A DNA stretch of 64,000 bases from positions 2,240,001 through 2,304,000 of the forward strand of contig OX638340.1 of NCBI GenBank assembly GCA_951812955.1, given 5' to 3'. Below are positions 2,119 to 41,542 of the stretch, one piece after another (the stretch's first letter is position 1; each line of letters opens with the position of its first letter). The notes beneath the pieces were generated by a model, which was not told where the DNA came from, ran no database searches, and saw only the letters and a list, made by a program, of their open reading frames with translations. Made by a program: the position numbers and the translations under genes. The DNA comes from an uncultured Gemmatimonadota bacterium (GTDB lineage Bacteria > JAAXHH01).

Positions 2119-3717
2119 ATGGATCCATCAACGCGTCTGAGGACCAGGGATTGGCAGATCATGCCACACGATTCACAGCCAACAGACACGATCTGGTACT
2201 GCATTCGGCGAAATGGCATCGCGAAAGATGAAGGCTGGATCGGCGATGTCACGCTGGATGACTTGCCGAATCAGGTGGGCGTTGAACCGGGTGATACGTT
2301 CGAAGTTTGTATCGCTTCAGACTTTCAAACTGTACCGCCTGACCAGATATCCAGCTTCTTCTACAACCGGGACCGCGGGATTGTCGGCTTGGAGATGGCT
2401 TACGGTGATGAGACCTTGCGAATCGCGCCTACTCGAATGATCGCAGCGAATCTCGGGTTTGCCCGGGCCATGGAGAGATTCCGTCAACAGTTAAACATAA
2501 GCGCTGACGAATTCGCCACCAACGGCAGGCTGCGTGTTTTTTCCGCCAGGCAGGTCCTGGTACCGGGCGGAAGCATACCTGACCGAATGGAACTACATCG
2601 TGGATCAACACTCGTGACCGAGGCTCCGTCGGATGGCAGGGACCGAGCTGAGGTGCTGGCCTGTGGAATTAGTCGGTGGATGCTTCGAAATATGTCCGAG
2701 GATGGCGCGTTGCCCTACAAATACTGGCCTAGCCGGGGTAAAGAATCTCCGGCCGATAACGCCATTCGCCGGTTTCTTGCATCCCTGGCCCTTGAACGTC
2801 ACGGTAGATATTTCGATGACAAAGAAATTCGTGAGGCGGCCCGGCGCAACCTGGGCTTCAATCTGAAGCGGAATTTCAGGGTCATCGGCGGTGGAATAGG
2901 CGCCATAGTGGAACCAACAGGAGCGAAGCTTGGTGCGGCGGCGCTGGCCGCTTTGTGTATACTGGAGAGCCCGGCATTCAGTGATTTCAAGACCGAGTAC
3001 GACATGCTGACCGCTGGTGTGAACTCACTTGCGGATAAGGAAATGGGATTTCGTACATTCTTCTTTCCACCCGAACGCGACGGAGAAAACTGGAATTTCT
3101 ATTCGGGGGAAGCACTACTGTTCTGGGCCGAGGCCATGCGCCATGGCGCGCCGGGTGCCCCTACGCTGGAACGCTGCGCCGAGACTTTTGATAAGTGCCG
3201 GGAACGGCATTTTCGGGCACGGAACCCCGCTTTCGTTCCGTGGCATATACAGGCCTGCACATCCCTGTTCAAACAAACAAGGCGGCGTGAGTTCGTCGAT
3301 TTTGTGTTTGAGATCAGCGACTGGCTACTACCAATGCAGCAGTGGGACGGAATGTTGCCGGACCTTCGCGGTCGGTTCTACAATCCAAAACGACCGGATT
3401 TTGGACCGCCACACGCGGCTTCCACCGGAGCCTACCTCGAAGGTCTTGCGGACGCCTCGATGTTGGCGCAAATGGTAGGAGACTGTCCCCGTGCCAAAGC
3501 ATACCAACGAGTCGTAAACCGTGGGCTGCGTTCTCTACGTCAACTGCAGTTCCGCGATGCCTGCGACACTTTCTATATTTCAAAGAAACACCGTGTCATG
3601 GGCGCGATCCGTACGGAAGCCTACGACAATTCAGTTCGAGTCGACTCGGCAGCGCACGCCCTGATCGCGGCAGTAAAATGGCTGAAATCAGGACGTACTC
3701 ATTCGGTCGGCGCGTAG
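2119..3717 (+). CDS. Hypothetical 532-aa protein, possibly an all-alpha (alpha/alpha-toroid-like) fold. Function unknown.
   Basis: Long ORF with coding-like composition and no recognisable catalytic motif. It is not LanC-like (no CHG/WCHG zinc motifs). Its 3' end overlaps the 3' end of the convergent AspH-like gene by 19 bp. Confidence 0.5.
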   Translation: MDPSTRLRTRDWQIMPHDSQPTDTIWYCIRRNGIAKDEGWIGDVTLDDLPNQVGVEPGDTFEVCIASDFQTVPPDQISSFFYNRDRGIVGLEMAYGDETLRIAPTRMIAANLGFARAMERFRQQLNISADEFATNGRLRVFSARQVLVPGGSIPDRMELHRGSTLVTEAPSDGRDRAEVLACGISRWMLRNMSEDGALPYKYWPSRGKESPADNAIRRFLASLALERHGRYFDDKEIREAARRNLGFNLKRNFRVIGGGIGAIVEPTGAKLGAAALAALCILESPAFSDFKTEYDMLTAGVNSLADKEMGFRTFFFPPERDGENWNFYSGEALLFWAEAMRHGAPGAPTLERCAETFDKCRERHFRARNPAFVPWHIQACTSLFKQTRRREFVDFVFEISDWLLPMQQWDGMLPDLRGRFYNPKRPDFGPPHAASTGAYLEGLADASMLAQMVGDCPRAKAYQRVVNRGLRSLRQLQFRDACDTFYISKKHRVMGAIRTEAYDNSVRVDSAAHALIAAVKWLKSGRTHSVGA

Positions 3718-4334
3718 ATGTAGTGCCCGCGTCCTTTCTCCGGCAGCACGTCGAAAATCAAGTGCACCCGTGGTTCGTTTGTCGGGTTTCTCGCTTCGTG
3801 CAGCGCCTTGTTGTCGAACACCCACAGCTCGCCTTCCCGCATCACTATGGTTTCACCTTCTGCGGTCATTGGACTCCCCTCCGGGCTCCTCAGCACAAGG
3901 TGGTATCGATCACGTATTCGGTAGTAAGCGCCGGCGTCGGTATGAGGTCGAACCCACCCCTGAGGTTGCAAGGATACCAGTGTAGCGCGTCCAAGTACAC
4001 CCCGATGAAGCGTGGCGATCTCTTTACAGAACGCCAGCGTTCGGGGGAATTTTCTAGCAGTAGCAGTAGTGCGACTGTCATGGACGTCGTTGGCGTTTTT
4101 CGCTCCTGGAGGCAGTGGTTTTTTAGCGGTACGCAGAAAGATATTTTGGGTGTCGCGTTGACAACGAACCTTGCGTTGCCGACTGGTATCGGCGAGCCAA
4201 AGATCTGGTACTGTGTCCAATTCCAGCATTAGCGGTTCAATATCGATGCCCGTCGCGATCCGGGTGAAACGCTTACCTGCCGGTGACACATCATTTGATT
4301 CTTTACCGGGAATCACATCGGTCTTGTGTATCAC
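3699..4334 (-). CDS. Aspartyl/asparaginyl beta-hydroxylase family Fe(II)/2-oxoglutarate oxygenase (AspH/LpxO/CinX-like)
   Basis: Strong similarity to the AspH catalytic core: GWVRPHTDAG..YHLVL aligns with the human THVWPHTGPTN..MHLGLVI, and GELWVFDNKALHEARN..RVHLIFDV aligns with GKVLIFDDSFEHEVWQ..RLIFIVDV. Both His ligands and the 2OG-binding Arg region are conserved. Confidence 0.85.
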   Translation of the reverse strand: MIHKTDVIPGKESNDVSPAGKRFTRIATGIDIEPLMLELDTVPDLWLADTSRQRKVRCQRDTQNIFLRTAKKPLPPGAKNANDVHDSRTTATARKFPRTLAFCKEIATLHRGVLGRATLVSLQPQGWVRPHTDAGAYYRIRDRYHLVLRSPEGSPMTAEGETIVMREGELWVFDNKALHEARNPTNEPRVHLIFDVLPEKGRGHYIYAPTE

Positions 4335-4469
4335 AAACGACCACCCTTACCGCCATATGCCAATGGGATTGATCAGCACCATCTCAGTATTCAACACAAG
4401 TAGTTACGTATGCTGGAGCCAGCTCAACAGGCCAGAAAGTACACGTTCGGTTAATCGAACAGCCATGAA

Positions 4470-5483
4470 TCAGTCGTCATCGTCGTCATCTTTATCATCG
4501 TCGTCATCGTCATCGTCGTCATCGTCGTCATCATCATCGCCGTCGCCATCCCCGTCACCATCCCCGTCGCCATCGCCATCGCCATCGCCGTCACCATCGC
4601 CGTCGCCATCCCCGTCTCCATCACCATCACCGTCGCCATCTCCATCACCATCGCCGTCACCGTCGCCATCCCCATCGCCGTCCCCATCTCCATCGCCGTC
4701 GCCGTTACCTCCAGAGTTCCCACTGGGCGGTGGACTTAACTCTTCATCGCCGTCGCCATCCCCATCGCCGTCTCCATCACCACTGGGCGGTGGACTTAAC
4801 ACTTCGTCACCGTCGCCATCCCCGTCGCCATCCCCGTCTCCATCACCGTCGCCATCCCCGTCTCCATCACCGTCGCCATCGCCATCCCCATCGCCATCGC
4901 CATCACCGTCGCCATCGCCATCCCCATCGCCATCGCCGTCACCATCCCCATCACCATCACCGTCGCCATCACCGTCGCCATCCCCGTCCCCATCTCCGTC
5001 GCCATCCCCGGCCCCGTCCCCATCGCCATCGCCGTCACCATCGCCGTCGCCATCCCCGTCTCCATCACCGTCCCCATCACCGTCGCCATCCCCGTCCCCA
5101 TCACCATCACCGTCACCATCGCCGTCACCGTCACCATCGCCGTCCCCATCGCCACCATTTGAACTTGTGGTATTTGTTACCACACTTGCGTTGTCCTCGT
5201 TATTGCTACCTGCATCCCCGTTCCCATCCCCATTTCCGTTCCTATCTCCATTTCCGTCACCATCTCCATCTCCATCGCCATCTCCGTCCCCGTCGCCGTC
5301 CCCATCGCCGCTGCCACCCGGACTCTGAGCACTCCCCACCTGATTCGCACTCGTGGCGAATCCAGACCCTGATCCCATGGGGTTCAGATCGTTGTCCCCT
5401 CTGCAACCCAGGATCATGAGCAACGAAGCGACAGTCAGTTGCATTCTTCGCAACCATTGCATAATGGTTCGGCACAAGGCCAT
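4470..5483 (-). CDS. Lipoprotein made almost entirely of Gly-Asp dipeptide repeats (about 125 GD units), with two short EVLSPPPSG/EELSPPPSG spacers and a C-terminal poly-Asp tail (D15-K-D6)
   Basis: Minus-strand frame has an N-terminal signal peptide with RR n-region and lipobox (..ASLLMILGC). The (GD)n tract is uninterrupted, 337 aa and in frame. The other frames of the same DNA give SP-repeat or HR-rich shadow ORFs without start context. It is on the same strand as the AspH-like gene, 135 bp upstream of it. Confidence 0.6.
   Translation of the reverse strand: MALCRTIMQWLRRMQLTVASLLMILGCRGDNDLNPMGSGSGFATSANQVGSAQSPGGSGDGDGDGDGDGDGDGDGDGNGDRNGNGDGNGDAGSNNEDNASVVTNTTSSNGGDGDGDGDGDGDGDGDGDGDGDGDGDGDGDGDGDGDGDGDGDGDGDGAGDGDGDGDGDGDGDGDGDGDGDGDGDGDGDGDGDGDGDGDGDGDGDGDGDGDGDGDGDGDGDGDGDGDEVLSPPPSGDGDGDGDGDGDEELSPPPSGNSGGNGDGDGDGDGDGDGDGDGDGDGDGDGDGDGDGDGDGDGDGDGDGDGDGDGDGDGDGDDDDDDDDDDDDDDDKDDDDDD
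4473..5320. repeat. Roughly 830-bp period-6 (hexanucleotide, GTCGCC/GTCACC/ATCGCC variants) tandem repeat tract, with an embedded 60-bp direct duplication (cactgggcggtggacttaac twice) and a 3' GAT/GAC homocodon run
   Basis: Read directly from the sequence between 4473 and 5320. The period is a multiple of 3, so slippage would preserve reading frame. Confidence 0.9.
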
Positions 5484-5817
5484 GGCACGCTACCTATTTG
5501 CCGGTTTGGAAATACAGTACAGGAGTGTTATTTGATTGTAATACGGAGCACACACAATCATGAGGAACCCTACCTTTGCCGTGACAGGCTATAGGGAACG
5601 TCACGGCAGACACAGATAGTAGGTAACGTTGTGTACCCTAAATAAAACCGGATTCCAGCTTGGATGTCAATGATTTAGACTTCAAGGTGATCACAAGACC
5701 TTTACATGACACAGTAATCCGTCCACTTTCGCCATTTCGATTCCTATCACAGCAACTAGGAATACGGCACCGCGGCGACAGTCCTGGCCTTGCATACACG
5801 GGTATATCAATCAGGTA

Positions 5818-6177
5818 CTAAGGCTTGTCGATCCAGACCGGATCCGGCGTGATGCTCGTCTCTGGCGGCGGCCCGGTATCGGTCCATTCTTCCTCGTTCT
5901 CGAGGAGGAATCCGGGTTCGACCGACATGTCGTGATCGCAGATGATCTGGCAGGACAACCGTACCTCGCCGACCAGCCCTTTCTCGGAAAGTACCGCGTG
6001 CTCGGCCTCGGTCATCGTGTCCGGCTCGCCCTCACTGATGGTCACCCGGCAGGTTGTGCACTTGGCGTTCCCACCGCACCGGTGGCCGATGTTCACCCCG
6101 GTGCCCTCGATAGCCAGTACCAGACGCTGCCCGGAATCGACTTCGTTCTCCACTCCGTTGACGGTAAGTTTCGGCAT
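5818..6177 (-). CDS. [2Fe-2S] ferredoxin, adrenodoxin/putidaredoxin type
   Basis: C-x5-C-x2-C ... C cluster ligands (HRCGGNAKCTTCRV ... LSCQIIC). 119 aa, the typical size for this family. Confidence 0.75.
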   Translation of the reverse strand: MPKLTVNGVENEVDSGQRLVLAIEGTGVNIGHRCGGNAKCTTCRVTISEGEPDTMTEAEHAVLSEKGLVGEVRLSCQIICDHDMSVEPGFLLENEEEWTDTGPPPETSITPDPVWIDKP

Positions 6178-7194: not shown

Positions 7195-8826
7195 TCAGGC
7201 CTCGTCCATGAAAGGATAGCGCCAGTCCGTCGGCGGGACCATAGTTTCCTTGATCGTCCGGGCGCTCATCCACCGCAGCAGGTTCATCGGACTGCCCGCC
7301 TTGTCGTTCGTTCCGGACGCCCGGGCGCCACCGAAGGGCTGCTGTCCGACGACGGCCCCGGTGGGCTTGTCGTTGACGTAGAAATTACCGGCCGAGTTGC
7401 GGAGCGCATCCGATATGCGGACGATGGCTTCGCGGTCCTGCGCGAAGACGGAGCCGGTCAGGGCGTAGGGTGACGTGCCGTCGCAAAGCGTAAGCGTATC
7501 TTCCAACTGGTCGTCTTCGTAAACGTAGATCGTGAGCACGGGACCGAAGATTTCTTCTTCCATGGTTTTGAAACGCGGGTTCGTCGTCACGATTGTCGTC
7601 GGTTCGACGAACCAGCCTCGCTCGCGGTCGCAAACGCCGCCCGTGATGATCTCGGCGTCATCCGCCGAACGGGCGTATTCGATGTGACCGGCGATGTTTT
7701 CGAAGGAGGCCTCGTCGATCACGGCCGCCATGAAGTTGGTGAAGTCTTCGGGATCTCCCATCTTGATCTGCGAAGCTTCCGCCGTGAACCGATCCCTGAA
7801 TGCCGGCCACAGGGAACGGGGAATGTACATCCGGGAGGCCGCGGAACACTTCTGCCCCTGGTATTCGAAGGCGCCGCGTACCGCCGCCGCGACGAGGGCT
7901 TCCACGTCCGCTGAGGCGTGGACGAAGATGAAGTCCTTCCCTCCCGTCTCGCCCACGATGCGAGGGTAGTGCCTCATGCGCTCAAGGTTGCCCGCCACCG
8001 TGCGGTACATCCGCTGAAAGGTCTCTGTCGAACCGGTGAAATGGATCCCTGCCAGATCCGGGCTGTTCAGCACCGGATCGCCCACTTCGGCCCCGGATCC
8101 CGGGATGAAGTTAATCACGCCGGGGGGCAAACCGGCTTCTTGCAGCAGCCGCATGACGTGCCACGCCGAATAAACGGCCGAGGATGCCGGCTTCCAGAGG
8201 ACCGAGCAGCCGGTCAGCGCCGGCGCCGTGGGCAGGTTGCCGCCGATGGCCGTGAAATTGAACGGGGTTACGGCAAAGACGAACCCCTCGAGGGCCCGGT
8301 ACTCCAGTCGGTTCCACACCCCGACAGAGGATGCCGGCTGGTCGCTCATGAGCTGCGCGAGGTAGCTGACGTTGAATCGCCAGAAATCGATCAGTTCGCA
8401 GGCCGAATCGATCTCGGCCTGGTAGATCGTCTTGGACTGGCCCAGCATGGTGGCGGCGTTGACCGTCTGGCGCCAGGGACCGGCCAGCAAGTCCGCCGCT
8501 TTCGCTATAACCGACGCCCGGTGCTCCCAGGGCATATCCGCCCACGCGGCGCGGGCTTCCAGGGCCGCATCGATCGCCATACGGACCTCGACCGCTCCCG
8601 CTTTGTGATAGACGCCGAGATCGACTGTGTGATCGTGAGGCGCCCGTAGCGGTGCCGTGTTACCCGTCTTCACTTCGCGCCCGCCGATGATCAGTGGGAC
8701 CTCGACAGGCGAGGATTTCAACTCACCGAGCTTCGCCTTGACGGCGGCTCGTTCGGCCGATCCGGGCGCGTAGTCCAGTACCGGCTCGTTGTAGGGCTGA
8801 GGCGGGTTGAAGCGTGCGTTGGCCAT
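7195..8826 (-). CDS. pruA: L-glutamate gamma-semialdehyde (1-pyrroline-5-carboxylate) dehydrogenase, aldehyde dehydrogenase superfamily
   Basis: Start chosen at MANARFNPPQPYNEPVLDYAPGSAER (ATG at 8826). The ORF track extends a further 44 codons to 8958 in an Arg-rich extension. The ALDH catalytic Cys region FEYQGQKCSAASR is present. Confidence 0.85.
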   Translation of the reverse strand: MANARFNPPQPYNEPVLDYAPGSAERAAVKAKLGELKSSPVEVPLIIGGREVKTGNTAPLRAPHDHTVDLGVYHKAGAVEVRMAIDAALEARAAWADMPWEHRASVIAKAADLLAGPWRQTVNAATMLGQSKTIYQAEIDSACELIDFWRFNVSYLAQLMSDQPASSVGVWNRLEYRALEGFVFAVTPFNFTAIGGNLPTAPALTGCSVLWKPASSAVYSAWHVMRLLQEAGLPPGVINFIPGSGAEVGDPVLNSPDLAGIHFTGSTETFQRMYRTVAGNLERMRHYPRIVGETGGKDFIFVHASADVEALVAAAVRGAFEYQGQKCSAASRMYIPRSLWPAFRDRFTAEASQIKMGDPEDFTNFMAAVIDEASFENIAGHIEYARSADDAEIITGGVCDRERGWFVEPTTIVTTNPRFKTMEEEIFGPVLTIYVYEDDQLEDTLTLCDGTSPYALTGSVFAQDREAIVRISDALRNSAGNFYVNDKPTGAVVGQQPFGGARASGTNDKAGSPMNLLRWMSARTIKETMVPPTDWRYPFMDEA

Positions 8827-9095
8827 GATCCATATGTACCCGCCGCGGGGCCGATGTGTCAACTGTTTTGTAGGCCTTCCATGCGGCTGGAGGATCGGCG
8901 AATCAACGGCCGTTGGACGAGCGGACAGACGGCGGACAGACACTGCCGGACGGGCCATTTTAGCCTTGCCAGATCCTGCGGGGAAATGAGATATTGAGGT
9001 TATAGGCCAAAGCCAGACACGCGAATCATAAGAGCAGGATCAACCAGGTTCGCGGCAGCCCAGGAATTGCAGCCGCCCGGACCGGAGGTACGGTC

Positions 9096-10184
9096 ATGAG
9101 CACCGATCAAGCTGACCAGGAACACGGCATCAAGGCGGTCAACCAGGAATTCACGCAATACGACCAGGTGAAGAAGGAACAGACCTACAACCTGGCCGAA
9201 GGCGCGGCGGAGGAGGAATTCGACGAGGAAACGCAGATCAGGACCTGCGACATGAACCTGTTCCATCACGGCGGACCGGAGGGCAAGGCGCAGTTCGCCC
9301 GGGACATCGGTGAGGCCATGGAGGGCATCGGTTTCGTGATCCTCGAGAACCATGAAATCCCGGCCAGCCTGTACGTCGAGGCCGAGCGCAAGGTAGCCGA
9401 GTTCTTCACGTCCACGCCTATAGCGGATAAGATGAGATACGAGGCCCAGCGGCACGGGTCGGTCAACCAGGGCTACTTCCCCATCAAGCAGACCAGCCGG
9501 ATGCATCCCGATCTCGTCGAGGGCTGGGTATTCTGCCGGCGGGCCTTCAACCTGGGCGAGAACCCGGACTACCGCGAAACGGACTACTGGCCCGCGACCG
9601 GATACGAACCCTTTTTCCGCCAGGTCATCCGGCATCACGAAGGTCTGATCCTGCCCCTCATGCAGAGCATCCTGGCCTATCTCGGCTGTGACTCGACAAT
9701 GTACGACGAGAAACTCACGCGAACGAACTTCGGCTTCCGGCTCAACTACTACCCGCCCATCACCCGGGAGGACGACGAGTCCGGCGCCGGACGCATGCTG
9801 GGCCATGAGGACGTGGACCTGTTCACCATCCTGCCCTCCCACGGGGTGGATGGCCTGCAGGTGCTCAACCGCGAAAACATGAAGTGGATCCGCCTCAATC
9901 CGCCCGAGGGCAGCATCATCATCAACACCGGCGACTACATGCAGCGGATCACCAACGACCGCCTTCCTTCCACCACGCACCGTGTCAGCAAGCCTATCGA
10001 CACCAGTCTCTACGAATCGGCCCGCATCAGCATTCCCATGGCCGTATACGTCTGGGAGGAAGAAATGCTCGAGGTGCTGCCCAACACGGGCGAGCCCAAG
10101 TACGAACCCATCTCCGCCGTCCAGTTCCACACCCGGACCACGAGCAAGTACTACGGCGACGATTATGCGGTGGATGATGATTGA
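9096..10184 (+). CDS. 2-oxoglutarate/Fe(II)-dependent oxygenase, isopenicillin-N-synthase-like (DIOX_N + 2OG-FeII_Oxy) family
   Basis: HxD...H facial triad (GHEDVDLFTILP ... STTHRV) with the DSBH core GLQVLNRENMKWIRLNPPEGSIIINTGD. Confidence 0.75.
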   Translation: MSTDQADQEHGIKAVNQEFTQYDQVKKEQTYNLAEGAAEEEFDEETQIRTCDMNLFHHGGPEGKAQFARDIGEAMEGIGFVILENHEIPASLYVEAERKVAEFFTSTPIADKMRYEAQRHGSVNQGYFPIKQTSRMHPDLVEGWVFCRRAFNLGENPDYRETDYWPATGYEPFFRQVIRHHEGLILPLMQSILAYLGCDSTMYDEKLTRTNFGFRLNYYPPITREDDESGAGRMLGHEDVDLFTILPSHGVDGLQVLNRENMKWIRLNPPEGSIIINTGDYMQRITNDRLPSTTHRVSKPIDTSLYESARISIPMAVYVWEEEMLEVLPNTGEPKYEPISAVQFHTRTTSKYYGDDYAVDDD

Positions 10185-10380: not shown

Positions 10381-11136
10381 ATGACTCCCCACGAAAGATA
10401 CCTCTTCGACCTGCAGGGTTTTATCGAGGTCCCGGACGCGTTGGACGCCGGGCAGCTCGCAGAACTGAACGGCATACTGGACGAGAAGATCGACGGGGCC
10501 ATGGCACCCGGCGCCACCACCCACCGATTCGGCTTCACCCTGCTCGACTGGGGACCAACCTACCGGGAACTGATCGACAATCCGCGGATAGATCCTTATC
10601 TGGAACAACTGATCGGTCCGAAGTACCGGCTGGACCACGATTATGCCGATATCATCCGAAAAGGCGACGGTCCAATCGGCACGACCCTCCACGGAGGCGC
10701 CATCCCCTTCGACCCCCTCTACTCCTACACCTGCACCAACGAAGAGATCCGTTGCGGCCTGACTGTGGTCGCCTACTACCTGAAGGACGTAAATCCAGGC
10801 GACGGCGGATTCGGCTGCGTGCCCGGCAGCCATAAGAGCAACTTCCGGTTCCCGGACGAGTGGCGCAACCTCAAGACCGACCAGCCCTTCATCCGCGCCG
10901 TAACCGGCAAGGCCGGCACCGCCGTCATATTCACCGAGGCCCTGACCCACGGCACCATGCCCTGGCACGGTGACGAGCGCCGCACCCTCTTCTACAAGTA
11001 CTCGCCCAATTCGATATCCTGGTACGCGGAATACTATGACGCCGACCGGTACGAAGGTCTGACGGAACGGCAGCAGGAGATCCTTGAGGCACCGAACGCG
11101 CGGTATGGAGAACGGTCTAAGCGTGGGGTTGTGTAG
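10381..11136 (+). CDS. Phytanoyl-CoA dioxygenase (PhyH) family protein
   Basis: N-terminal ERYLFDLQGFIEVPDALDAGQL, typical of PhyH-family proteins. 251 aa. Confidence 0.65.
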   Translation: MTPHERYLFDLQGFIEVPDALDAGQLAELNGILDEKIDGAMAPGATTHRFGFTLLDWGPTYRELIDNPRIDPYLEQLIGPKYRLDHDYADIIRKGDGPIGTTLHGGAIPFDPLYSYTCTNEEIRCGLTVVAYYLKDVNPGDGGFGCVPGSHKSNFRFPDEWRNLKTDQPFIRAVTGKAGTAVIFTEALTHGTMPWHGDERRTLFYKYSPNSISWYAEYYDADRYEGLTERQQEILEAPNARYGERSKRGVV

Positions 11137-11214
11137 GTGGGCTTTACGGATAGACCAGTTGATATTACGACCACATTTATTTGCTCATTGATTTACTGTA
11201 TCTCGAGGTTACAA

Positions 11215-11505
11215 ATGGACGTTAAGGAAGCCGTAAGTACGGCCATAAAACATATTGCAGATGTATACTCGGAAGAGGGAATCTCGCATATTGGATTAGA
11301 AGAGGTAGAATACGACGAGATTAACTCACAATGGAACGTGACCGTTGGATTTGCACGTAAGTGGGACTTCCCTACTCCGGTTCTTATCCCCGTATTACCT
11401 TCACCAAGACCAAACCAAAGAACCTACAAAATCGTAGTAATTCGTGATAGAGACAAGAAGGTCACCGCAATGAAGATAAGGGATTTAGCTACGTCGAATG
11501 AATAG
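11215..11505 (+). CDS. Small hypothetical protein, possible cognate partner of the downstream PIN protein. First gene of the lower-GC insert.
   Basis: ATG with AGG Shine-Dalgarno about 8 nt upstream. The ORF track starts at a GTG at 11137, immediately after the PhyH stop. The 3' end overlaps the PIN gene by 8 nt. No recognisable antitoxin fold. Confidence 0.4.
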   Translation: MDVKEAVSTAIKHIADVYSEEGISHIGLEEVEYDEINSQWNVTVGFARKWDFPTPVLIPVLPSPRPNQRTYKIVVIRDRDKKVTAMKIRDLATSNE

Positions 11506-11968
11506 TGTGCTTATAGATACGAATCTACTTGTCCTTTTGGTTGTAGGATCTACCGATAGAGAGTTTATTAGTCGACATAAACGCACAAAATCGTTCATAC
11601 CCAGAGACTATGACGAACTGACACGTCTGTTGTCGGGATCTCGTGAGTTATGGGTTACTTCTCACTGTCTGGCAGAGACATCGAATCTTCTGAAGCAAAC
11701 CGATAAAACAAAAGCACAGATCTTGTTACATACTCTTGCGGCCTACTGCGATATTGCCCGCGAATCGCATATTCCCAAAGAGACGGTATTTGGATACGAG
11801 AACTACCGCAGACTTGGCGTCACCGACACCGGCTTCATATACTCATCCGAAACAGTCTCTCGATCTATAACAGTAGATTTCAACTTGTACATCGAACTGA
11901 GTAACCTTGGCAGAGAAGTGATAAACTTCCACCACATCCGTGCTTCGTATCTCCAGAATGTCGATTGA
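11498..11968 (+). CDS. PIN-domain protein (VapC-like putative RNase toxin)
   Basis: N-terminal MNSVLIDTNLLVLL is the hallmark PIN start. 156 aa. Located in the lower-GC island. Confidence 0.6.
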   Translation: MNSVLIDTNLLVLLVVGSTDREFISRHKRTKSFIPRDYDELTRLLSGSRELWVTSHCLAETSNLLKQTDKTKAQILLHTLAAYCDIARESHIPKETVFGYENYRRLGVTDTGFIYSSETVSRSITVDFNLYIELSNLGREVINFHHIRASYLQNVD

Positions 11969-12089
11969 CACGACGATCACACAGTTTTGCACATTCCAGT
12001 GCTTAGTTTTTGGTCAAGACCAACCTGTAGTTAAAACCAACCAATGGCCCTGAAGAAATCCCAAAATTTGGTAAACACTGCCAGGAGAG

Positions 12090-13034
12090 ATGCCACCTAT
12101 GCTTGACGAATTGGTTGGATGTATCGATGAACTTAAAGATCGTATTTCCAAATACCGAAACTCACTAAATGAGAACGAAACTCGTACTCGAATGCAGTTA
12201 ATAGATCCGCTGCTTCGTGTGCTGGGCTGGGACGTCTCCGATCCACGGTACGTTATCCCAGAATTCAAGGTGTCCGATGGTTGGGCTGACTATGCCTTAT
12301 TGCGGGATGATGGTAAGCCTGCTGCTATGGTGGAAGCTAAAAAACTGGACGAACCGTTAAAGCCCGCACACCGTGCTCAGATGTTGAAATACGCAATTGA
12401 GTTGGGTATCCCATACACTGGTTTGACAGATGGAAATCACTGGGAGTTGTACAATGTTTTCCAACCGGTACCTATGGAGGACAAACAGATCTTGGATGTT
12501 ACTTTATTGGATTCCCACTCCCACGAAAGTGCACTAAAGTTACTGCTGCTCTGGAATCCAAATCTAGACGCCGGCAGCGCGGTGAAAGCAAATGAACCTG
12601 TTCTCGTCGACACTCAGAATGGCGGTTCGATTCCTCCAATAATCGTTCCGCCACCATCGAACTGGAAGGCACTTTCAGATTACGAACCACCAGCAGGAAC
12701 ACCCGCACCTAAGGCTATTAGGCTTTGGGATGACTCAGAAAGAGAAGTGCATCATTGGTATGAAATTCTCACCATAGTAGCCGAAAAGCTCTACAACGAA
12801 AATGTCCTTACATTGGAACATATACCGATTCAATGGGCTAAAAAGACCTATAGTATTCACTCTCAACCAGTACATCCGACCGGCAACAAGTTTGAAAATC
12901 ATAAAGAAATCGGTAACTCGGGATTGTTCGTAAACGTAAATTTAAATACCGGTCAAGTACGAAATAACACCCGGAATCTACTGAAGAAATACAACATTGG
13001 TACAGAGAAGGTTTACCTCAAGGTAGCCGATTAG
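12090..13034 (+). CDS. Stand-alone type I restriction enzyme HsdR N-terminal-like (PD-(D/E)xK nuclease) domain protein with an uncharacterised C-terminal half
   Basis: NETRTRMQLIDPLLRVLGW ... DGWADYALL ... AAMVEAKKLDE matches the HsdR_N motif (ETRT..IDP.L..LGW, D...EAK). Confidence 0.6.
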   Translation: MPPMLDELVGCIDELKDRISKYRNSLNENETRTRMQLIDPLLRVLGWDVSDPRYVIPEFKVSDGWADYALLRDDGKPAAMVEAKKLDEPLKPAHRAQMLKYAIELGIPYTGLTDGNHWELYNVFQPVPMEDKQILDVTLLDSHSHESALKLLLLWNPNLDAGSAVKANEPVLVDTQNGGSIPPIIVPPPSNWKALSDYEPPAGTPAPKAIRLWDDSEREVHHWYEILTIVAEKLYNENVLTLEHIPIQWAKKTYSIHSQPVHPTGNKFENHKEIGNSGLFVNVNLNTGQVRNNTRNLLKKYNIGTEKVYLKVAD

Positions 13035-13444
13035 GTAGTTTCGTTGACCTACCATGTTGAGGAGTGATATTTCTTGATCTCCACAGACAAGGTTAAGGGT
13101 AAACCACAGCATACCTCCTCACTATCAGGCACGGTTCCTCAGTACGTTGAAGCGATATCAGCAACTCGCTAGCTAGCAGCTACCTGCCCCGTCGCATGGA
13201 ATACTGGGTACAAACCGTCTTTCACTTTAGTGGCGATTTGTTCACGGCTCCGTTCGTCAAATACAATTGAGCCCACTAATTCCACCTGTTTACCTCGACA
13301 AACAAGAGTACAGATCAATCACTTCGTATGACAAAACTCATTCAACTTCTATTCGAAATTGGAATCGGTGACCACCACTCAACCTCTGAATCGTGTGAGA
13401 CTGATGAAGATTCGCTGGTACATGGAAAGGATAATGGAGTGTAA

Positions 13445-15622
13445 TTGATGAATTCAACGTCTGAAGAAACCACCACCCGTCCCTGTTGGTTTGTGGGCGC
13501 CAGTTATTCTGGTACGGGCGATCAAACTGAGCGATTTCTCACGGAAGGTATCTGGGAGAACGGCTTCGACAACGATCATCCGGCCGTCGCGATGACCAAA
13601 ACCATTCAGCCCGGAGACCCAATCGCGATCAAGTCCGCCTACGTTCGCAAACACGACCTACCTTTTGACAGTCGCAACCAGTTCGTATCCGTAATGGCGA
13701 TCAAGGCCATCGGGACGGTTTTAGAGAACATCGGTGATGGCCATACCGTTAAGGTTAAATGGAATAAGGAGGTAACTCCGCGAGAATGGTATTTCTTTAC
13801 TAACAGAGGTACAGTTTGGAAAGTATCGCCTGGTAGTGACTGGTATTCCGACGCCCTGATCGGATTCGCGTTCGAGAACAAGCCGCAGGATATCGATCGT
13901 TTCTTAAAAGTGCCGTATTGGAGGGAGAGGTATCGAGGAGACACGCTCAATGATCAACGGTTTGCGTGGACGAGGTTCTACGAGGCCTTTGCGGATAAGC
14001 TGCTCACATATAGGAACAAGCGCTTAGACTTAATAAATGGTATACAAGAAATAGCTGCCAGAGAGTATGCCATGTTGGTTCTGAGGGATCAGTTTCGGGA
14101 CGGTACGATCGGTCCACTCAAAGACATATGCCCATTTACTACCATCGGATTGTTCAATAAGGGAATAACGAATAGCAATCGAAGATCAATTGCATCAGAA
14201 CTCGCTGAATTGCTGGGAGTGTCAGAGTCGGTTCCGGATTCATTCGATGGAATACCTGTTCTCAACAATCAGAATTCCTGGTTTTTTTCGTATGAAAAAA
14301 ACCGACGACCGGAAGATATTGAAATCCTTTGGAATGTTTACTCCCGTGCAATTGCCTTCGCTGATTCAGATGATTCCGATGCGCGATCTGCTTTCGTCTC
14401 TGCTTACGACGACGCATCCGAGGTTTCTCACGTAGGTTGGAAACTTACATTTGGGCTGTATTGGATACGGCCTTGGGATTTCCCCGTCCTCGACACGAAT
14501 ACCCGGCGTTACCTGGACAAGAAACTCAATATTGAGATCGGACTAAATGGACCGAAAAGGGGATACTGTAGTGCGAACGACTACCTGACGGTCCATGACA
14601 CACTTGAAAAGAGGTTTCTGGAGGACACATATCCGGTTCGTTCTTTTCCAGAACTAGCACGCGAAGCCTGGTTGTATAAGCCCGGTGACCCGGATCCCCC
14701 GCCAGATAGCGGTCTGGATCCCCCGCCACCACCTGTCCCTTATTCACTCGATGATATCGTGAAAGACGGCTGTTTCATTGCCAGAGATAAACTCGAGTCG
14801 ATACTCAATCGACTCCGTACCAAGAAAAACCTCATTCTACAAGGCCCTCCAGGAACCGGGAAGACTTGGCTCGCCAGGAAGTTGGCCTACGCTTTGATCT
14901 GTGAGCGAGACGAAAGCAAGGTTCGTTCGGTACAGTTCCATCCCAATCTCTCTTACGAAGATTTCGTACGTGGTTGGCGGCCGGCGGGAGATGGTAAACT
15001 TACGCTCGTAGATGGCCCCTTCATCGCCATAAGGGACGAGGCCGAAAAAGATCCTACTACTCGATACGTCTTGGTCATCGAAGAGATCAACCGGGGCAAT
15101 CCCGCACAGATTTTCGGCGAGATGCTGACATTGTTGGAGACCGACAAGCGAACTCCAGACGAAGCCTTGGAATTGGTTTATTCAAAGACTCCGGATGAGC
15201 GATTCTTTGTTCCTAACAATCTGTTTGTCATCGGGACGATGAACATTGCTGATCGTTCACTGGCACTTGTAGACCTGGCATTACGCCGTAGATTTGCATT
15301 TATCGATCTGGAACCTACCCTTGGCAAGACTTGGCGAGACTGGGTCCATTCTAAAAACGGGATAGATAACGAGACTCTCACCGAAATTGAGCATCGTATA
15401 GATGATCTGAACCGGACGATCTCCAATGATTCCGGTCTTGGCTCGCAATTTCGCTTGGGGCACAGTTATGTGACGCCGCCGTTTGAACAGCCGATTAAAG
15501 ATGGGAGAAAGTGGTACAGGGAAGTCGTTGAAACGGAAATTGGACCACTACTCGACGAATACTGGTTCGAAGACCTCGCGAAATCTAGAAACGCAAAAAA
15601 GAAACTTTTGGATGGTTTTTAG
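13445..15622 (+). CDS. mcrB: McrB-family AAA+ GTPase (5-methylcytosine-specific restriction subunit homolog) with a long (about 440 aa) divergent N-terminal region
   Basis: McrB signatures are present: ILQGPPGTGKTW (Walker A), FHPNLSYEDFVRGWRP, VIEEINRGNPAQIFGE (NxxN GTPase motif), FVIGTMNIADRS and ALRRRFAFIDL. Confidence 0.85.
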   Translation: MMNSTSEETTTRPCWFVGASYSGTGDQTERFLTEGIWENGFDNDHPAVAMTKTIQPGDPIAIKSAYVRKHDLPFDSRNQFVSVMAIKAIGTVLENIGDGHTVKVKWNKEVTPREWYFFTNRGTVWKVSPGSDWYSDALIGFAFENKPQDIDRFLKVPYWRERYRGDTLNDQRFAWTRFYEAFADKLLTYRNKRLDLINGIQEIAAREYAMLVLRDQFRDGTIGPLKDICPFTTIGLFNKGITNSNRRSIASELAELLGVSESVPDSFDGIPVLNNQNSWFFSYEKNRRPEDIEILWNVYSRAIAFADSDDSDARSAFVSAYDDASEVSHVGWKLTFGLYWIRPWDFPVLDTNTRRYLDKKLNIEIGLNGPKRGYCSANDYLTVHDTLEKRFLEDTYPVRSFPELAREAWLYKPGDPDPPPDSGLDPPPPPVPYSLDDIVKDGCFIARDKLESILNRLRTKKNLILQGPPGTGKTWLARKLAYALICERDESKVRSVQFHPNLSYEDFVRGWRPAGDGKLTLVDGPFIAIRDEAEKDPTTRYVLVIEEINRGNPAQIFGEMLTLLETDKRTPDEALELVYSKTPDERFFVPNNLFVIGTMNIADRSLALVDLALRRRFAFIDLEPTLGKTWRDWVHSKNGIDNETLTEIEHRIDDLNRTISNDSGLGSQFRLGHSYVTPPFEQPIKDGRKWYREVVETEIGPLLDEYWFEDLAKSRNAKKKLLDGF

Positions 15623-16743
15623 TGGTGAATGGCCCAGTAGTTAGTACGGCTGACGAGACGATCGAACAGGCCGGGTATATCGGTCGTATCCCTTTACGAA
15701 ATATCTGGCTGCTCATGCTTTACGCCTCTGACCTTTTCAGGCAACTTGATGCGTCTGAATACCGCTCCTTCGAAGATAATCCTGATGACCTGCCCGATCT
15801 GGTTGCCGAGATCCTATCACATGAAGTCGAACGTCGACTAAAGCGAAATCTGAGTTACGGCTACCAATACCGTAACGAAGTGCTCGGACGGGTTCGCGGA
15901 CGTATCGACCTTTTACAAACCGAAGCTCATCAACTACTGCAACGCGGCATGGTCGCCTGTCGATTCGACGAACTGACAATCGACACACCGAGGAACAGGT
16001 ACGTTCGATCCGCCCTCGAGATGATATCCAAATATGTTCGTCGAAAAGACCTGGCTCACCAGTGCAGGTCCCTCGTTGGAAGCCTTAGGCGACAGGGAGT
16101 CGTTGGAGAACGACCTGGGCGTGAGGTGACGTCAGTTGAGCGATACGGTAGACATGACGCTGTTGACCGCAAGATGGTGGATGCGGCTCGTCTTGCCTTC
16201 GAAATGGCCATTCCGACCGAGCAGACCGGTTCCAGGCACCTTCCACTACCGGACCGTGATATAAACTGGATTCGCAGACTCTATGAGAAAGGCGTTGCAG
16301 GATTCTATGATGTGGTACTTTCCAGAAGGGGATGGAATGTGTATCCGGGAACGATTCTCAGATGGCCCACGACAGTCAGAAGTCCGCGAATAGACGGGAT
16401 ACTACCCTCCATGCGGACCGATATTGTGTTGGATCATGTTGACGAAGGCCGACGGATCGTTATAGACACGAAATTCAACTCGGTTTTGTCGAGAGGTTGG
16501 TATCGAAATGAAGGGATACGAAGCGGATACATGTACCAGATCTATGCTTACCTTAGGTCGCAGGAAGAGAGTGGTGATCCGCTTGATTGTAATGCAGAGG
16601 GAATGTTTCTCCATCCGTCGGTTGGTGAGATGTTCAACGAATGGGTAGATATTCAGGGTCATCGGATCCACTTCAATACCGTTGATCTCGCAACCGATAC
16701 ACAGACCATCAGATCGCAGTTGTTGGATGCGGTGAAACCTTAA
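15622..16743 (+). CDS. mcrC: McrC-family nuclease subunit
   Basis: GTG start overlapping the mcrB stop (TAGTG), 373 aa, C-terminal PD-(D/E)xK-like IVLDHVDEGRRIVIDTKF. Position immediately after mcrB supports the call. Confidence 0.7.
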   Translation: MVNGPVVSTADETIEQAGYIGRIPLRNIWLLMLYASDLFRQLDASEYRSFEDNPDDLPDLVAEILSHEVERRLKRNLSYGYQYRNEVLGRVRGRIDLLQTEAHQLLQRGMVACRFDELTIDTPRNRYVRSALEMISKYVRRKDLAHQCRSLVGSLRRQGVVGERPGREVTSVERYGRHDAVDRKMVDAARLAFEMAIPTEQTGSRHLPLPDRDINWIRRLYEKGVAGFYDVVLSRRGWNVYPGTILRWPTTVRSPRIDGILPSMRTDIVLDHVDEGRRIVIDTKFNSVLSRGWYRNEGIRSGYMYQIYAYLRSQEESGDPLDCNAEGMFLHPSVGEMFNEWVDIQGHRIHFNTVDLATDTQTIRSQLLDAVKP

Positions 16744-16834
16744 ACTGACTTTGCTCTCGACATAGTCGTTCCACCAGCCCATTTCCCGCATCCGTTTGGT
16801 GTGTTCGGCAGCTTCGGTAATCTCAAGATTTGAC

Positions 16835-17761
16835 TCACCCCGCCTTCCTGAAGACCTCGAAACGACGGTCCAGCCGGTCCTGGTCCGGATGGTCACGGGT
16901 GCGTGAAGGCAGGTGCAGTCCCGATCCGTCCAGTTGCTTGAGGGCCTGGAGCATGGGACCGTCATCCTTGTCCAGCAGGCGGTCGGATACGTGCAGCCGG
17001 TAGTCGGGATCAATGCCGATCAGGTGGGCGTCAAAGGCCGCATGATGAATCTTGGACAGGGCCAAGCCGTTGGGTACGACGGGTTGTCCCAATGCCTCGT
17101 CGCCATCGGCAATGATGTGGGCGGCATCCAGTAACTGCGTTTCCGGTAGGCCGGTAATGGCACAGCGGCCGCGATAGGCGTGAAGGACAGCCTCGCGGAA
17201 CGTGGCTTGGTGGAGTCGTTCCTTGACCATGCGCAGGGCATACCGCCGCTCTACCGCGTTAATCGGAGCTTCCATCTCGGCCTGGTTGGGGTTCCCAAAG
17301 GCAAGCGTGGACTTGAGCGCGAATCCATCCCAATTGGAGATGAAGGTGGGAATGATCGCCTGATACCGGCTGGGAGACACACCGAGAAAGTAGATCACGG
17401 GAATCTGATTCTCCCAGGCAACCTTTAACCACTGGTTGTCTGCTGCTGCCGGGTCCTGTCCCATGAAGGCGTAGTCCACGGAATCGTTGCCCTCGAAAAT
17501 CTGGCTGTGGACCTGCTTTTGGTCGTCGTACCAGACTCGGCCGCCCGGTCTGGGGTACACGGTCCTGATCGAGAGAAGGTACCGCATCCGGCGCGGCTTG
17601 AATATGCCCCGCTGCGGATTGACAAGGGGGATCCTTTCGCCTTCGAATACGAACCCCGGCGCCAGTTCGTCCCTCGTAAGGTGGCCATGGGTTTCACTCA
17701 GCCGCCGCACGTGATCGAACGCGGCCATCCGCATCCTCGGATCTCGGTCGTCGACGTTCAT
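16835..17761 (-). CDS. HNH_2-family endonuclease with an N-terminal putative DNA-modification reader domain (type IV restriction-like)
   Basis: C-terminal YRGRCAITGLPETQLLDAAHIIADGDE ... NGLALSKIHHAAFD is the HNH_2 pattern (C..TG...L.AAHI.P ... NGL.L....H..FD). Confidence 0.7.
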   Translation of the reverse strand: MNVDDRDPRMRMAAFDHVRRLSETHGHLTRDELAPGFVFEGERIPLVNPQRGIFKPRRMRYLLSIRTVYPRPGGRVWYDDQKQVHSQIFEGNDSVDYAFMGQDPAAADNQWLKVAWENQIPVIYFLGVSPSRYQAIIPTFISNWDGFALKSTLAFGNPNQAEMEAPINAVERRYALRMVKERLHQATFREAVLHAYRGRCAITGLPETQLLDAAHIIADGDEALGQPVVPNGLALSKIHHAAFDAHLIGIDPDYRLHVSDRLLDKDDGPMLQALKQLDGSGLHLPSRTRDHPDQDRLDRRFEVFRKAG

Positions 17762-17770
17762 CTCAGTCCT

Positions 17771-18787
17771 TTACCCCCGGTAAATCCTCTCATTGTGCCA
17801 GGATAGTACTTCGGTGGACGGCTGGTCCACCGCATTCCTGGGAACGACAATCTGTTTCCCGTGCAAAGAGTAGTAATCGCGCCCGTTCTCGAATTCCTCC
17901 CGGACCTGTCCGCTGACCTCGAAGTGCAATTCAGGGGTCACCGTTACGTATCCGGAATCGAACAGCCCGTGGATGTCGCGCCTTAGCAGCAGTCCGTTCC
18001 TGGCTTCGTGGATGCCCCCTTCGCTGTAGGGACGGATGTGCGCGGCATCAAGGGCCGGCAGCGTCCGTTCGCGGGTAACTGCGCAACGGCGGTCGTAAAG
18101 GTCGGTTACCAGGGCCCTGAAAGCACCTTGACCGAGACGCGGTTTGACCAGTTGCGGTTTGCCGTAAAGGGTTTGCCCGGCCAGGAGGCCTGAGGGTTCG
18201 GCCACGATGCCGGCAGGATTTGCAGATACACTGGTTGGCTGTCGGAATTCCAAACGGCCGTTGACTGCGTCCCACAATGCCCGTCCGTCTGAGTCACCGG
18301 TACTAAATGTCTTTAGTGACACGATGTTCGGCGACCATGTCGACGGCACATCGACAAACTCGGATGCCTCGAAGAAGAAGGGTTGGGTAAGGATCCGGCA
18401 GCCAATCTTGTAATCGCTCGGCTCACGTGGGTCAACATTACGGTAACGTGAGATACGATTTCGCATTTCCTGCAATGTCTCGGCACCGTTGGCTTCCCCG
18501 AATGCTTCCCATGCAAGGGAACAAGGCATCACATTGGCATAGGCAAAAACGCCGCCGCCAACGATTACGTTGTACGGCGCGTGTAGCTTGAAGAGGAACA
18601 GTTCACCGGGCTGAAGTGCCTTGAAGTTCGTGCCAGAAGGCGCCCAGAAGTTGACCTCCTCCAGGTGCGGCTTCTGCCGGAGAGTCTTGAACCAGTCCCC
18701 GTCGGTCACGGCAACGACCAGCTTGATGTCCATAGCGCGAATTCCGGTAAACTTTGGTGCTATTGGGATACAGGCAGATCCGATCAA
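17771..18787 (-). CDS. HNH_2-family endonuclease with an N-terminal PUA/EVE-like beta-barrel domain (type IV restriction-like)
   Basis: C-terminal RRCAVTRERTLPALDAAHIRPYSEGG ... NGLLLRRDIHGLFDSGYVTV. N-terminal KLVVAVTDGDWFKTLRQ..VNFWAPSG..GELFLFKL resembles PUA-like modified-base readers fused to nucleases. Confidence 0.7.
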   Translation of the reverse strand: MIGSACIPIAPKFTGIRAMDIKLVVAVTDGDWFKTLRQKPHLEEVNFWAPSGTNFKALQPGELFLFKLHAPYNVIVGGGVFAYANVMPCSLAWEAFGEANGAETLQEMRNRISRYRNVDPREPSDYKIGCRILTQPFFFEASEFVDVPSTWSPNIVSLKTFSTGDSDGRALWDAVNGRLEFRQPTSVSANPAGIVAEPSGLLAGQTLYGKPQLVKPRLGQGAFRALVTDLYDRRCAVTRERTLPALDAAHIRPYSEGGIHEARNGLLLRRDIHGLFDSGYVTVTPELHFEVSGQVREEFENGRDYYSLHGKQIVVPRNAVDQPSTEVLSWHNERIYRG

Positions 18788-19076
18788 CGGACAACCGCAA
18801 CCGTGCGTCTCGCTGATCGAGCCTTATCATCTAAAATAAAAGACGGCAACCATGGCAGGTCAAGTGCCGCCTGTGCGACCCGGTTTTTGACGTTTGGAAC
18901 ACAGAACGAGTGCTTCCAGATTGCCTTGACCAAATGTACCTGTTAGTTTACTGAACGTTGGTACACTTGATCTCATAAGTTATCAGGAGATTACGAGCGA
19001 GTAGTGAAAGGAACGATTCATATCTTATGTTGTGTAATTTAAATCATATATCGGAAATAGTACATAGGGGAGTTGT

Positions 19077-27276: not shown

Positions 27277-27424
27277 CGTCTTCTCCGCCCTGCTCGTCAA
27301 CGACGACTCCATATGTAGGTGGCATGATCGGCATTCCTGCCGCCATGCTCTTCAACCCCGACTCCTAAGGTAGGTGGCCGTGTCCATCATATCCTCCGCT
27401 ATGCTCGTCAACCCCGATGGAGAC
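27277..27424. repeat. Three imperfect tandem copies (about 56 bp each) of the NUDIX gene 5' end
   Basis: ccgccctgctcgtcaacgacgactccatatgtaggtggc, ccgccatgctcttcaaccccgactcctaaggtaggtggcc and ccgctatgctcgtcaaccccgatggagac. The first two copies end in in-frame stop codons. Confidence 0.7.
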
Positions 27425-41370: not shown

Positions 41371-41542
41371 GCTCGATCTCCCTTTCTATGCTGTTTTTGC
41401 CCTGCCATTTACAACTATGCATAATACCGGGCACGCGTCCCGGCGTCAAACGATTACGGTCTATCTGCGACTGCCTCTTCCCCTTCCCATCCGGTTTCGC
41501 CAAGCGTCAGTCCGCCGGCCACACCCCGCGCTTCGAGCAATT

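Follow-up and report, generated by a model that had tools for sequence, protein, structure and literature searches.

What is encoded by a long tandem repeat with a period of six nucleotides, and what might it do for the cell? Such a repeat fills positions 4473 to 5320 of a 64,000-nucleotide stretch of DNA (contig OX638340.1, positions 2,240,001 to 2,304,000; hereafter the window) from an uncultured Gemmatimonadota bacterium. Read on the minus strand, it gives (Gly-Asp)n inside the open reading frame (ORF) 4470..5483. The in-frame period-6 tract described by the original prediction, which had been made from these letters alone, was confirmed, with interruptions by an N/S/T-rich linker and two proline-rich spacers. 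We found that this Gly-Asp (GD) tract very probably codes for a hypervariable lipoprotein, and that the gene almost certainly belongs to a conserved three-gene cassette present across several phyla, together with the genes for a PF05118-family oxygenase (the hydroxylase) and for orf532, a protein with a toroid domain (Table 1).

A conserved cassette around the GD tract

The cassette lies beyond the region covered by the original prediction and was missed there. Searching with the hydroxylase, at one genome per species, turned up 41 loci (53-92% identity), distributed over Gemmatimonadota, Acidobacteriota (Vicinamibacteria, Thermoanaerobaculia, and Bryobacterales), and Gamma- and Alphaproteobacteria. 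The toroid gene adjoins and converges on the hydroxylase gene in all 41 of them, and a GD tract adjoins it in 39, lying upstream on the same strand in 37 and divergently in 2 (L003 and L005). Locus L007, which has no GD tract, carries an IS-like transposase ORF (4552-5616) just upstream of the hydroxylase, and in L006 a different lipoprotein (5354-5935) replaces the GD gene; the L006 hydroxylase shares 97.7% identity with the one in L037, a locus of 63 GD units. The other neighbours in the window (ABC permeases, ferredoxin, SDR, and aldehyde dehydrogenase) are found again in just the two closest relatives.

The feature shared by the GD carriers, which are otherwise unrelated, is the tract itself, with 13 to 143 units. 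The carriers comprise small lipoproteins with poly-Asp tails like that of the window, proteins in which the tract is joined to RTX repeats (L009, L016, L023, L031, and L038) or to a subtilase (L039 and L041), and proteins in which it is joined to domains without a Pfam match. The C-terminus of the L035 carrier looked 'TbpB-like' by eye, which Pfam did not bear out.

Cross-phylum identities of 60-75%, together with unrelated flanks, suggest that the cassette spread horizontally. At least two metagenome-assembled genomes (MAGs) contain two copies of it (L017 and L026 in CATOTG01, L010 and L030 in JAJEDW01), which differ in tract length or carrier type. Between the window and L001, protein identity was 92% for the hydroxylase and 91% for orf532, as against 97-99% for the adjacent ABC permeases (75-2046 region), a hint that the cassette evolves faster or is exchanged. 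The closest named relative of the window, APA_bin_41, is in a MAG set of Aplysina aerophoba sponge symbionts (PMC11706023); other MAGs may, judging by their names alone, stem from sponge or coral projects. The cassette is also present in Algihabitans albus ac2 (L041), a cultured isolate, so the hypothesis developed below is directly testable. We found neither a GD-repeat/PF05118/toroid cassette nor the toroid family described in the searchable literature, which does know surface proteins with dipeptide repeats, lipoproteins with disordered linkers, and polymorphism in repeat length.

The tract is coding in the Gly-Asp frame

Of the 337 residues of the GD protein, 126 are Asp and 120 are Gly. 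Its 100 GD dipeptides form five blocks of 9, 23, 34, 6, and 28 units, arranged as MALCRTIMQWLRRMQLTVASLLMILGC...(GD)9...AGSNNEDNASVVTNTTSSNG-(GD)23-GA-(GD)34-EVLSPPPS-(GD)6-EELSPPPSGNSGGN-(GD)28-D14-K-D6-stop; in other GD carriers the poly-Asp tail reaches 36 residues. The N-terminus was read by pattern only, as a lipobox ([LVI][ASTVI][GAS]C) after a positively charged n-region and a hydrophobic h-region. In the resulting signal, MALCRTIMQWLRRMQ-LTVASLLMIL-G-C, lipobox positions -3 (I) and -1 (G) fit and -2 (L) is atypical, and canonical lipoboxes (FFVASC, VAAGC, and LLGAC) are found in other GD carriers. The lipoprotein-type signal is kept in the orthologues, which supports secretion of the acidic polymer that had been proposed.

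We then considered which strand is coding. Third-codon-position degeneracy was tried for this purpose and dropped. The reverse complement of GGN-GAY is RTC-NCC, and the plus-strand frame TCN-CCR (Ser-Pro) is open and just as degenerate at its third positions. Therefore codon periodicity cannot pick the strand of any GGN-GAY tract (4536-5153, for example), and neither can gene callers. The Ser-Pro-, His/Arg-, and MAT-rich shadow ORFs that had been pointed out are each present, and the accompanying warning of mis-annotation was borne out by L042, a 2.47-Mb 'ptg' contig to which P0075, 99% identical to orf532, had led. The public calls for L042 7539-8986 omit the GD ORF, call two MAT-rich shadow ORFs (8291-8614 and 8657-8986), and render the intact 215-codon frame of the hydroxylase as 56 amino acids.

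The open and synonymously degenerate Ser-Pro frame, along with the absence of the GD frame from the L042 calls, would fit a tract that is non-coding or belongs to a plus-strand Ser-Pro gene, with the GD frame as the shadow. We consider this scarcely credible. The N-terminus with its positive n-region, hydrophobic core, and ILG/C lipobox is conserved in the window, L002, and L042, and exists in the GD frame only. Likewise, only the GD frame runs without a stop into known domains of relatives, namely RTX nonapeptide repeats (L009), a Peptidase_S8 subtilase (L041), and the PF05118 oxygenase (L013 and L040), whereas the Ser-Pro ORF starts antisense within the hydroxylase gene and lacks any export signal. 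The conserved signal peptide and the in-frame fusions in relatives thus establish the minus strand as the coding one.

Exact-sequence look-ups of the GD protein and of the hydroxylase matched no record. When the GD protein was used as a homology query, the matches were all unrelated low-complexity proteins rich in G, D, N, and Y, so that this search is useless as a reverse test. The Pfam match to TrAA12-like (PF22807) was rejected as a low-complexity artefact, falling on the same ~50 profile positions (about 380-433) in every GD protein tested; it sometimes exceeds the gathering score (67.7 bits versus 30.9 in L040) and could seed false annotations. Between the GD gene and the hydroxylase gene, a search for a terminator or attenuator found one weak hairpin (4461-4444) at chance level, and the same gap in 12 loci showed no stable or conserved structure (z from -1.2 to +1.3). 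No sigma-70-like promoter was found.

Tract length and block order change fast

To compare tract lengths, we took all loci with hydroxylase DNA at least 94% identical and counted the untruncated pairs at 97-100%. The tract differed in six of these seven pairs. Between the window and L042, whose hydroxylase DNA is 99.5% identical, the GD blocks are 9/23/34/6/28 versus 10/10/54/39, with a handful of differing positions outside the tract over window 3600-5900. The GD protein of L042 has 366 residues, and its proline-rich spacers are 54 GD units apart, versus 6 in the window. The other pairs that differ are L013 and L015 (99.1%; 64 versus 9 units), L029 and L030 (100%; 46+28 versus 40+34), L068 and L109 (100%; 102 versus 95), L017 and L022 (97.2%; 53 versus 60), and L009 and L038 (96.7%; 40 versus 41+22+19). 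In L022 and L026 (100%) the GD tracts are identical. The orthologue in L002, the neighbours of which have 87-98% protein identity to those of the window, has just 163 residues and one spacer. Every tract variant keeps the reading frame.

These results show that tract length and block order change fast between near-identical genomes, as the original prediction had anticipated for length, and that the observed differences are all in frame, again as anticipated. Some caution comes from length differences that stem from short-read assemblies, in which repeats may have collapsed, and from the sequencing technology of the window itself, which is unknown; the stronger comparisons are those with L042 and among chromosome-level MAGs. 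The expected fragility in assembly was also observed: the contig or locus breaks off inside the tract or at its edge in 5-7 of the 41 genome loci and in 28 of the 80 metagenome loci listed in the reverse scan described below. GD genes are systematically broken or mis-called in metagenome assemblies, and tract length is a strain-level marker.

The repeat had been called near-pure at the DNA level, which did not hold. Matches within the tract by TRF were only 72-74%, all eight synonymous GGN-GAY hexamers are used (24, 18, 15, 14, 10, 8, 6, and 5 times), and the longest perfect run of any one hexamer is 18 bp; the perfection lies in the peptide. Since the DNA is not near-pure, simple hexamer slippage is unlikely as the mechanism, and the changes look as if blocks of several units were gained, lost, and reshuffled. 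The longest exact repeat in the tract is 50 bp, with copies 444 bp apart, compared with a mean of 27 and a maximum of 47 bp in 200 codon-shuffled versions encoding the same protein, and there is a tandem duplication of a 36-bp unit. The spacer-bearing 60-bp duplication noticed earlier is real, 4720-4779 and 4780-4839 matching at 52 of 60 positions with an identical 21-bp core. It is not a private recent event, for both spacers occur in L042 and one in L002. Scrambled hexamers combined with long internal duplications therefore indicate that the peptide is kept perfect while codons drift, and that change proceeds through multi-unit blocks.

As in bacterial contingency loci, a repeat drives fast change in a surface-protein gene. 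Unlike those loci, the tract has a period that is a multiple of three (6 nt) and imperfect DNA, and all of its variants are in frame, so that it varies in length instead of switching on and off by frameshift; we do not class it as a phase-variation locus.

The two enzymes and a proposed modification of the tract

The hydroxylase passes the PF05118 threshold with 80.4 bits against a gathering score of 22.6 (E=1.7e-22), and its best 120 homologues are all PF05118 proteins. It has a double-stranded beta-helix fold. Residues H131, D133, and H179 (the HxD...H triad) and R189 are invariant in 37 hydroxylase sequences and align with the HxD, His, and Arg of proline hydroxylases. The best structural match is a free-proline hydroxylase; PF05118 also holds such enzymes and the lipid hydroxylases LpxO and OlsC, and the window enzyme is about equally distant from these and from the human aspartyl hydroxylase AspH. 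The other enzyme candidate, orf532, has an (alpha/alpha)6 barrel fold, with structural identities of 7-14%. It had no Pfam or NCBIfam match and no sequence or profile match in PDB, and these searches did not place it in the GH76, AGE epimerase, GH88, or terpene cyclase sequence families. A full-library search gave a family of 1,351 cluster representatives at E<=1e-3, 290 of them at E<=1e-30. Two more genes of the oxygenase type were noticed in the window, a PhyH-family protein at 10381-11136 and an ORF at 9096-10184, the L042 counterpart of which is called a DIOX_N/2OG-FeII_Oxy protein.

Both enzymes are basic, with median isoelectric points of 9.3 (hydroxylase) and 9.5 (toroid), and the GD protein has a net charge of about -124. 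No signal peptide was found on the unfused hydroxylases (29 of 39 loci) or on the toroid in any of the 41 cassette loci; lacking an export signal, both enzymes are predicted to be cytoplasmic. The best overall explanation in our judgment, about as likely as not, is that the GD tract is modified by the cassette enzymes before export to yield a surface polyanion. The secreted lipoprotein would be little more than some 100 Gly-Asp dipeptides with a lipid anchor at one end and a poly-Asp tail at the other, and the two basic enzymes would act in the cytoplasm on the disordered tract, ahead of Sec export and lipidation. That the tract is the substrate of these enzymes has, we estimate, an even chance of being true. 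As for the chemistry, the oxygenase might hydroxylate the beta carbon of Asp to give beta-hydroxy-Asp. This assignment is made by analogy with the protein hydroxylase of the family and is tentative, with the balance somewhat against it. The toroid could help to dock the substrate, like the TPR domain of human AspH, or could itself carry out a second modification. The outcome would be an envelope polymer, long and polyanionic, that strongly chelates cations (Ca2+ or Fe3+) and is possibly protease-resistant. Recombination or slippage between imperfect repeats would tune its length by adding or removing multi-unit blocks. Beta-hydroxy-Asp is the metal-binding residue of many siderophores. The most extended form of the idea is a new protein-based chelating polymer, in which some 100 Asp residues become beta-hydroxy-Asp and the toroid, as a new enzyme family, carries out further processing, the polymer serving as a length-tunable surface binder of Ca2+ or Fe3+ and being shared horizontally among marine bacteria from various phyla, sponge symbionts included; we regard it as unlikely, if worth stating.

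The enzyme might instead hydroxylate an acyl chain, for example of the lipoprotein anchor or of a membrane lipid, in the manner of LpxO and OlsC. The partner protein is indeed a lipoprotein, and NCBIfam detects weak similarity to LpxO (E=6e-7) and OlsC (E=0.005). The scores are far under the cut-offs, however (29 bits versus 500). LpxO and OlsC are membrane proteins, whereas the window enzyme is small and shows by eye no obvious hydrophobic membrane segment, and acyl hydroxylation would leave the link to GD tracts in carriers that are not lipoproteins (RTX type) unexplained. We therefore rate lipid hydroxylation as very improbable.

Fusions between the parts

In 10 loci (L012, L013, L015, L017, L021, L022, L026, L027, L032, and L040) the GD/poly-Asp tract is in frame with the hydroxylase through the linker PPWQFVAFAPAA, and Pfam finds PF05118 inside the fused ORFs. 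The linker is conserved through synonymous codon changes and is therefore translated. Elsewhere, the toroid and one or two PF05118 domains are combined in single polypeptides (P0319, P0370, P0386, and P0453), so that the partnership of toroid and oxygenase is independent of the window lineage. Among nine long members of the orf532 family that were scanned, four had PF05118, three had Mur-ligase M and C domains, and one had methyltransferase and FAD_binding_4 domains. The last two kinds (P0325, P0347, P0368, and P0358) suggest that the toroid family takes part more widely in the modification of peptides or of envelope precursors. Fusions are thus known for each pair of cassette parts except GD tract and toroid.

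The 10 fused loci, which encode lipobox, GD tract, poly-Asp, conserved linker, and oxygenase in one frame, could also be read as displaying the enzyme. The GD/poly-Asp stalk would hold an extracytoplasmic oxygenase off the membrane, as in AspH and junctate; its substrates would be envelope proteins or host proteins such as those of the sponge matrix, and the small unfused GD lipoproteins would be remnants or partners. Human AspH has a comparable order of membrane anchor, acidic Ca2+-binding region, helical-repeat domain, and PF05118 domain, and a distant toroid homologue (L091) has a lipoprotein signal of its own. Against display, the oxygenase is a separate, signal-less protein in most loci and the toroid is signal-less throughout, as given above. 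The lineages with fused loci are related to one another (Thermoanaerobaculia and Candidatus Multivorans-type MAGs), so that only one or a few fusion events may be involved, and the supply of 2-oxoglutarate (2OG) and Fe(II) in the periplasm is uncertain. Display of the enzyme appears quite improbable.

GD tracts with and without the cassette

A reverse scan blind to the enzymes was made for 16 consecutive GGN-GAY units in metagenome contigs, and gave at least 80 loci. Of the 80 loci listed, six carry the toroid family, and three of these six also carry the hydroxylase. As the toroid family is rare, six of 80 among the matches listed is a strong enrichment. The loci with both enzymes include the two longest tracts among the matches listed (95 and 102 units). 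Toroid homologues with 33-42% identity adjoin the tract in L065 (4-1230), L091 (2878-4698), and L092 (279-2000). The L091 toroid starts with a lipoprotein-type signal, and some members of the family may act outside the cytoplasm.

The relation is therefore asymmetric: the cassette nearly always has a GD tract, and a GD tract is usually found without the cassette. The cassette-free tracts among the matches listed (74 of 80) have 16-45 units, mostly directly after the lipobox Cys, and mostly precede Cys-rich or other secreted domains. GD tracts in general thus do not need the enzymes. Such tracts would suit a passive role, in which the unmodified, disordered GD tract serves as a tether or as a low-affinity buffer for Ca2+, while the enzymes have some other target (a small molecule, a sugar, or an amino acid). 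Disordered N-terminal linkers, which are important for lipoprotein sorting, are found in about half of E. coli outer-membrane lipoproteins (bioRxiv 10.1101/2021.01.05.425367). The structural match of the oxygenase to a free-proline hydroxylase points the same way, as do the fold of the toroid, which is typical of carbohydrate-active enzymes and terpene cyclases, and the fusions of other toroid members to Mur-ligase or methyltransferase/FAD domains. What a passive tether leaves unexplained is the linkage of hydroxylase and GD tract in 39 of 41 loci across phyla with otherwise unlike carriers, the in-frame GD-hydroxylase fusions, and the strong basicity of both enzymes. Moreover, the window GD protein has no domain to tether. 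We consider the passive role rather unlikely.

Several observations weigh against modification of the tract by the cassette enzymes. Besides the many cassette-free tracts, L006 retains both enzymes without a long GD tract, and on the contigs L065, L091, and L092, which have the toroid beside a GD tract, no hydroxylase was detected. The known substrates of AspH are folded, disulfide-bonded EGF domains, not GD repeats. In the fused loci, the lipoprotein signal would export the oxygenase away from the signal-less toroid, so that there a stalk fits at least as well as a substrate.

Other features of the window

The region 11000-18800 has a low GC content (0.43-0.53 versus a window mean of 0.59) and encodes a defence island (Table 1). 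Tandem duplications unrelated to the GD tract were seen at 41542-41635 (47 bp x2, 100%), 36284-36387 (48 bp x2.2, 98%), 53223-53267 (23 bp x2, 100%), and 27283-27417 (55 bp x2.4, 78%). The whole window contained no tRNA and no Rfam element.

Table 1. Features of the GD cassette and the defence island, in window coordinates (aa, amino acids)
Feature	Position	Strand	Remarks
GD-repeat lipoprotein gene	4470..5483	minus	337 aa, net charge about -124; from ORF and translation; same N-terminus in L002 and L042 orthologues
Predicted lipoprotein signal peptide MALCRTIMQWLRRMQLTVASLLMILG/C, lipobox ILGC	5403..5483	minus	pattern reading of the sequence; kept in L002 and L042
First GD block, 9 units, then N/G-rich stretch	5256..5309	minus	10 units in L042
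N/S/T-rich non-repeat linker AGSNNEDNASVVTNTTSSNG, 20 aa	5154..5213	minus	identical in L042
Main GD tract (GD)23-GA-(GD)34, spacer, (GD)6, spacer, (GD)28	4536..5153	minus	part rearranged relative to L042 and L002
Spacer 1, EVLSPPPS, proline-rich	4782..4805	minus	found in L042 and L002
Spacer 2, EELSPPPSGNSGGN, proline-rich	4704..4745	minus	found in L042, absent from L002
Poly-Asp tail D14-K-D6	4473..4535 (stop codon 4470-4472)	minus	D21-K-D6 in L042
PF05118 Fe(II)/2OG oxygenase (hydroxylase), 211 aa	3699..4334	minus	135 bp downstream of the GD gene, same strand
orf532, 532 aa, N-terminal beta domain and (alpha/alpha)6 toroid	2119..3717	plus	convergent, overlaps the hydroxylase 3' end by 19 bp
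Shadow ORF, poly-Ser/Ser-Pro	4171..5328	plus	judged no gene; no signal peptide; 5' part antisense to hydroxylase start
Shadow ORF, His/Arg-rich	4730..5419	plus	judged no gene
Shadow ORFs, MAT-rich	4451..4723 and 4796..5158	minus	
Defence island: ORF with weak HSDR_N match	12090-13034		
Defence island: AAA_5 ATPase	13445-15622		
Defence island: McrBC-family protein	15622-16743		
Defence island: two HNH endonucleases	16835-17761 and 17771-18787	minus	

Comparison with known systems and significance

The best-documented analogue is the Ser-Asp (SD) repeat of staphylococcal surface proteins (ClfA/B and SdrC/D/E) with the enzymes SdgA and SdgB. The sdgA and sdgB genes adjoin the sdr genes in all strains, and their products glycosylate the SD repeats, which protects them from cathepsin G (PMC3794999). 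The window resembles this system in that degenerate repeat DNA encodes a surface protein with a long run of X-Asp dipeptides, and in having an oxygenase and a toroid protein beside the repeat gene, where the staphylococcal system has dedicated modifying enzymes (PMC3794999). It differs in the repeat itself, Gly-Asp instead of Ser-Asp, so that there is no hydroxyl group until one is added. It also differs in its diderm host with a lipid anchor in place of the staphylococcal LPXTG anchor, in the absence of a ligand-binding A domain, and in its neighbours, which are a 2OG oxygenase and a toroid protein and not GT-B glycosyltransferases. The GD protein is not a member of the MSCRAMM SD-repeat adhesins, since the translation has neither an A domain nor LPXTG and the NCBIfam scores (41-49 bits against cut-offs of 999-2500) are low-complexity artefacts. 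Allelic variation in sdrD has reportedly been the subject of one paper.

Human AspH, with its junctate and humbug isoforms, is only distantly related to the window enzyme, with a profile E of 5e-5 and roughly 20% identity. In the alignment, the classical HxD...H triad of the window enzyme faces HxG in AspH, and the helical partner is an (alpha/alpha)6 toroid here and a TPR domain in AspH. The GD protein is like Gram-negative lipoprotein linkers in that a disordered segment directly follows the lipobox Cys, a position where GD tracts are frequent among the metagenome matches listed. Unlike those linkers, it is a 'linker' that makes up the whole protein (~300 residues, charge about -124, no folded domain), with a far longer tract, a poly-Asp tail, and a genetic tie to two enzymes.

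Calsequestrin and the molluscan Aspein and Asprich are eukaryotic proteins of extreme Asp content with disorder and poly-Asp runs. The GD protein shares these traits and would be expected to bind cations with low affinity and high capacity, but it has no sequence relation to them, and they have no linked hydroxylase. We know of no mineral phenotype in bacteria with the cassette. Plant extensins and arabinogalactan proteins contain (Ser-Pro)n or (Ala-Pro)n that is modified by prolyl 4-hydroxylase and then elaborated. They are like the cassette in pairing a secreted short-period repeat with a 2OG oxygenase, and unlike it in the modified residue (Pro), the oxygenase family, the kingdom, and the compartment.

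If the GD tract is modified as proposed, the cassette would be a bacterial parallel to SD-repeat glycosylation, with an oxygenase supplying the chemistry, and an uncommon instance of a low-complexity protein hydroxylated en masse after translation. The unannotated toroid family, with its ~1,350 cluster representatives, would gain a first clue to its function, and there would be reason to suspect that sponge symbionts have a surface polymer for handling metals or calcium.

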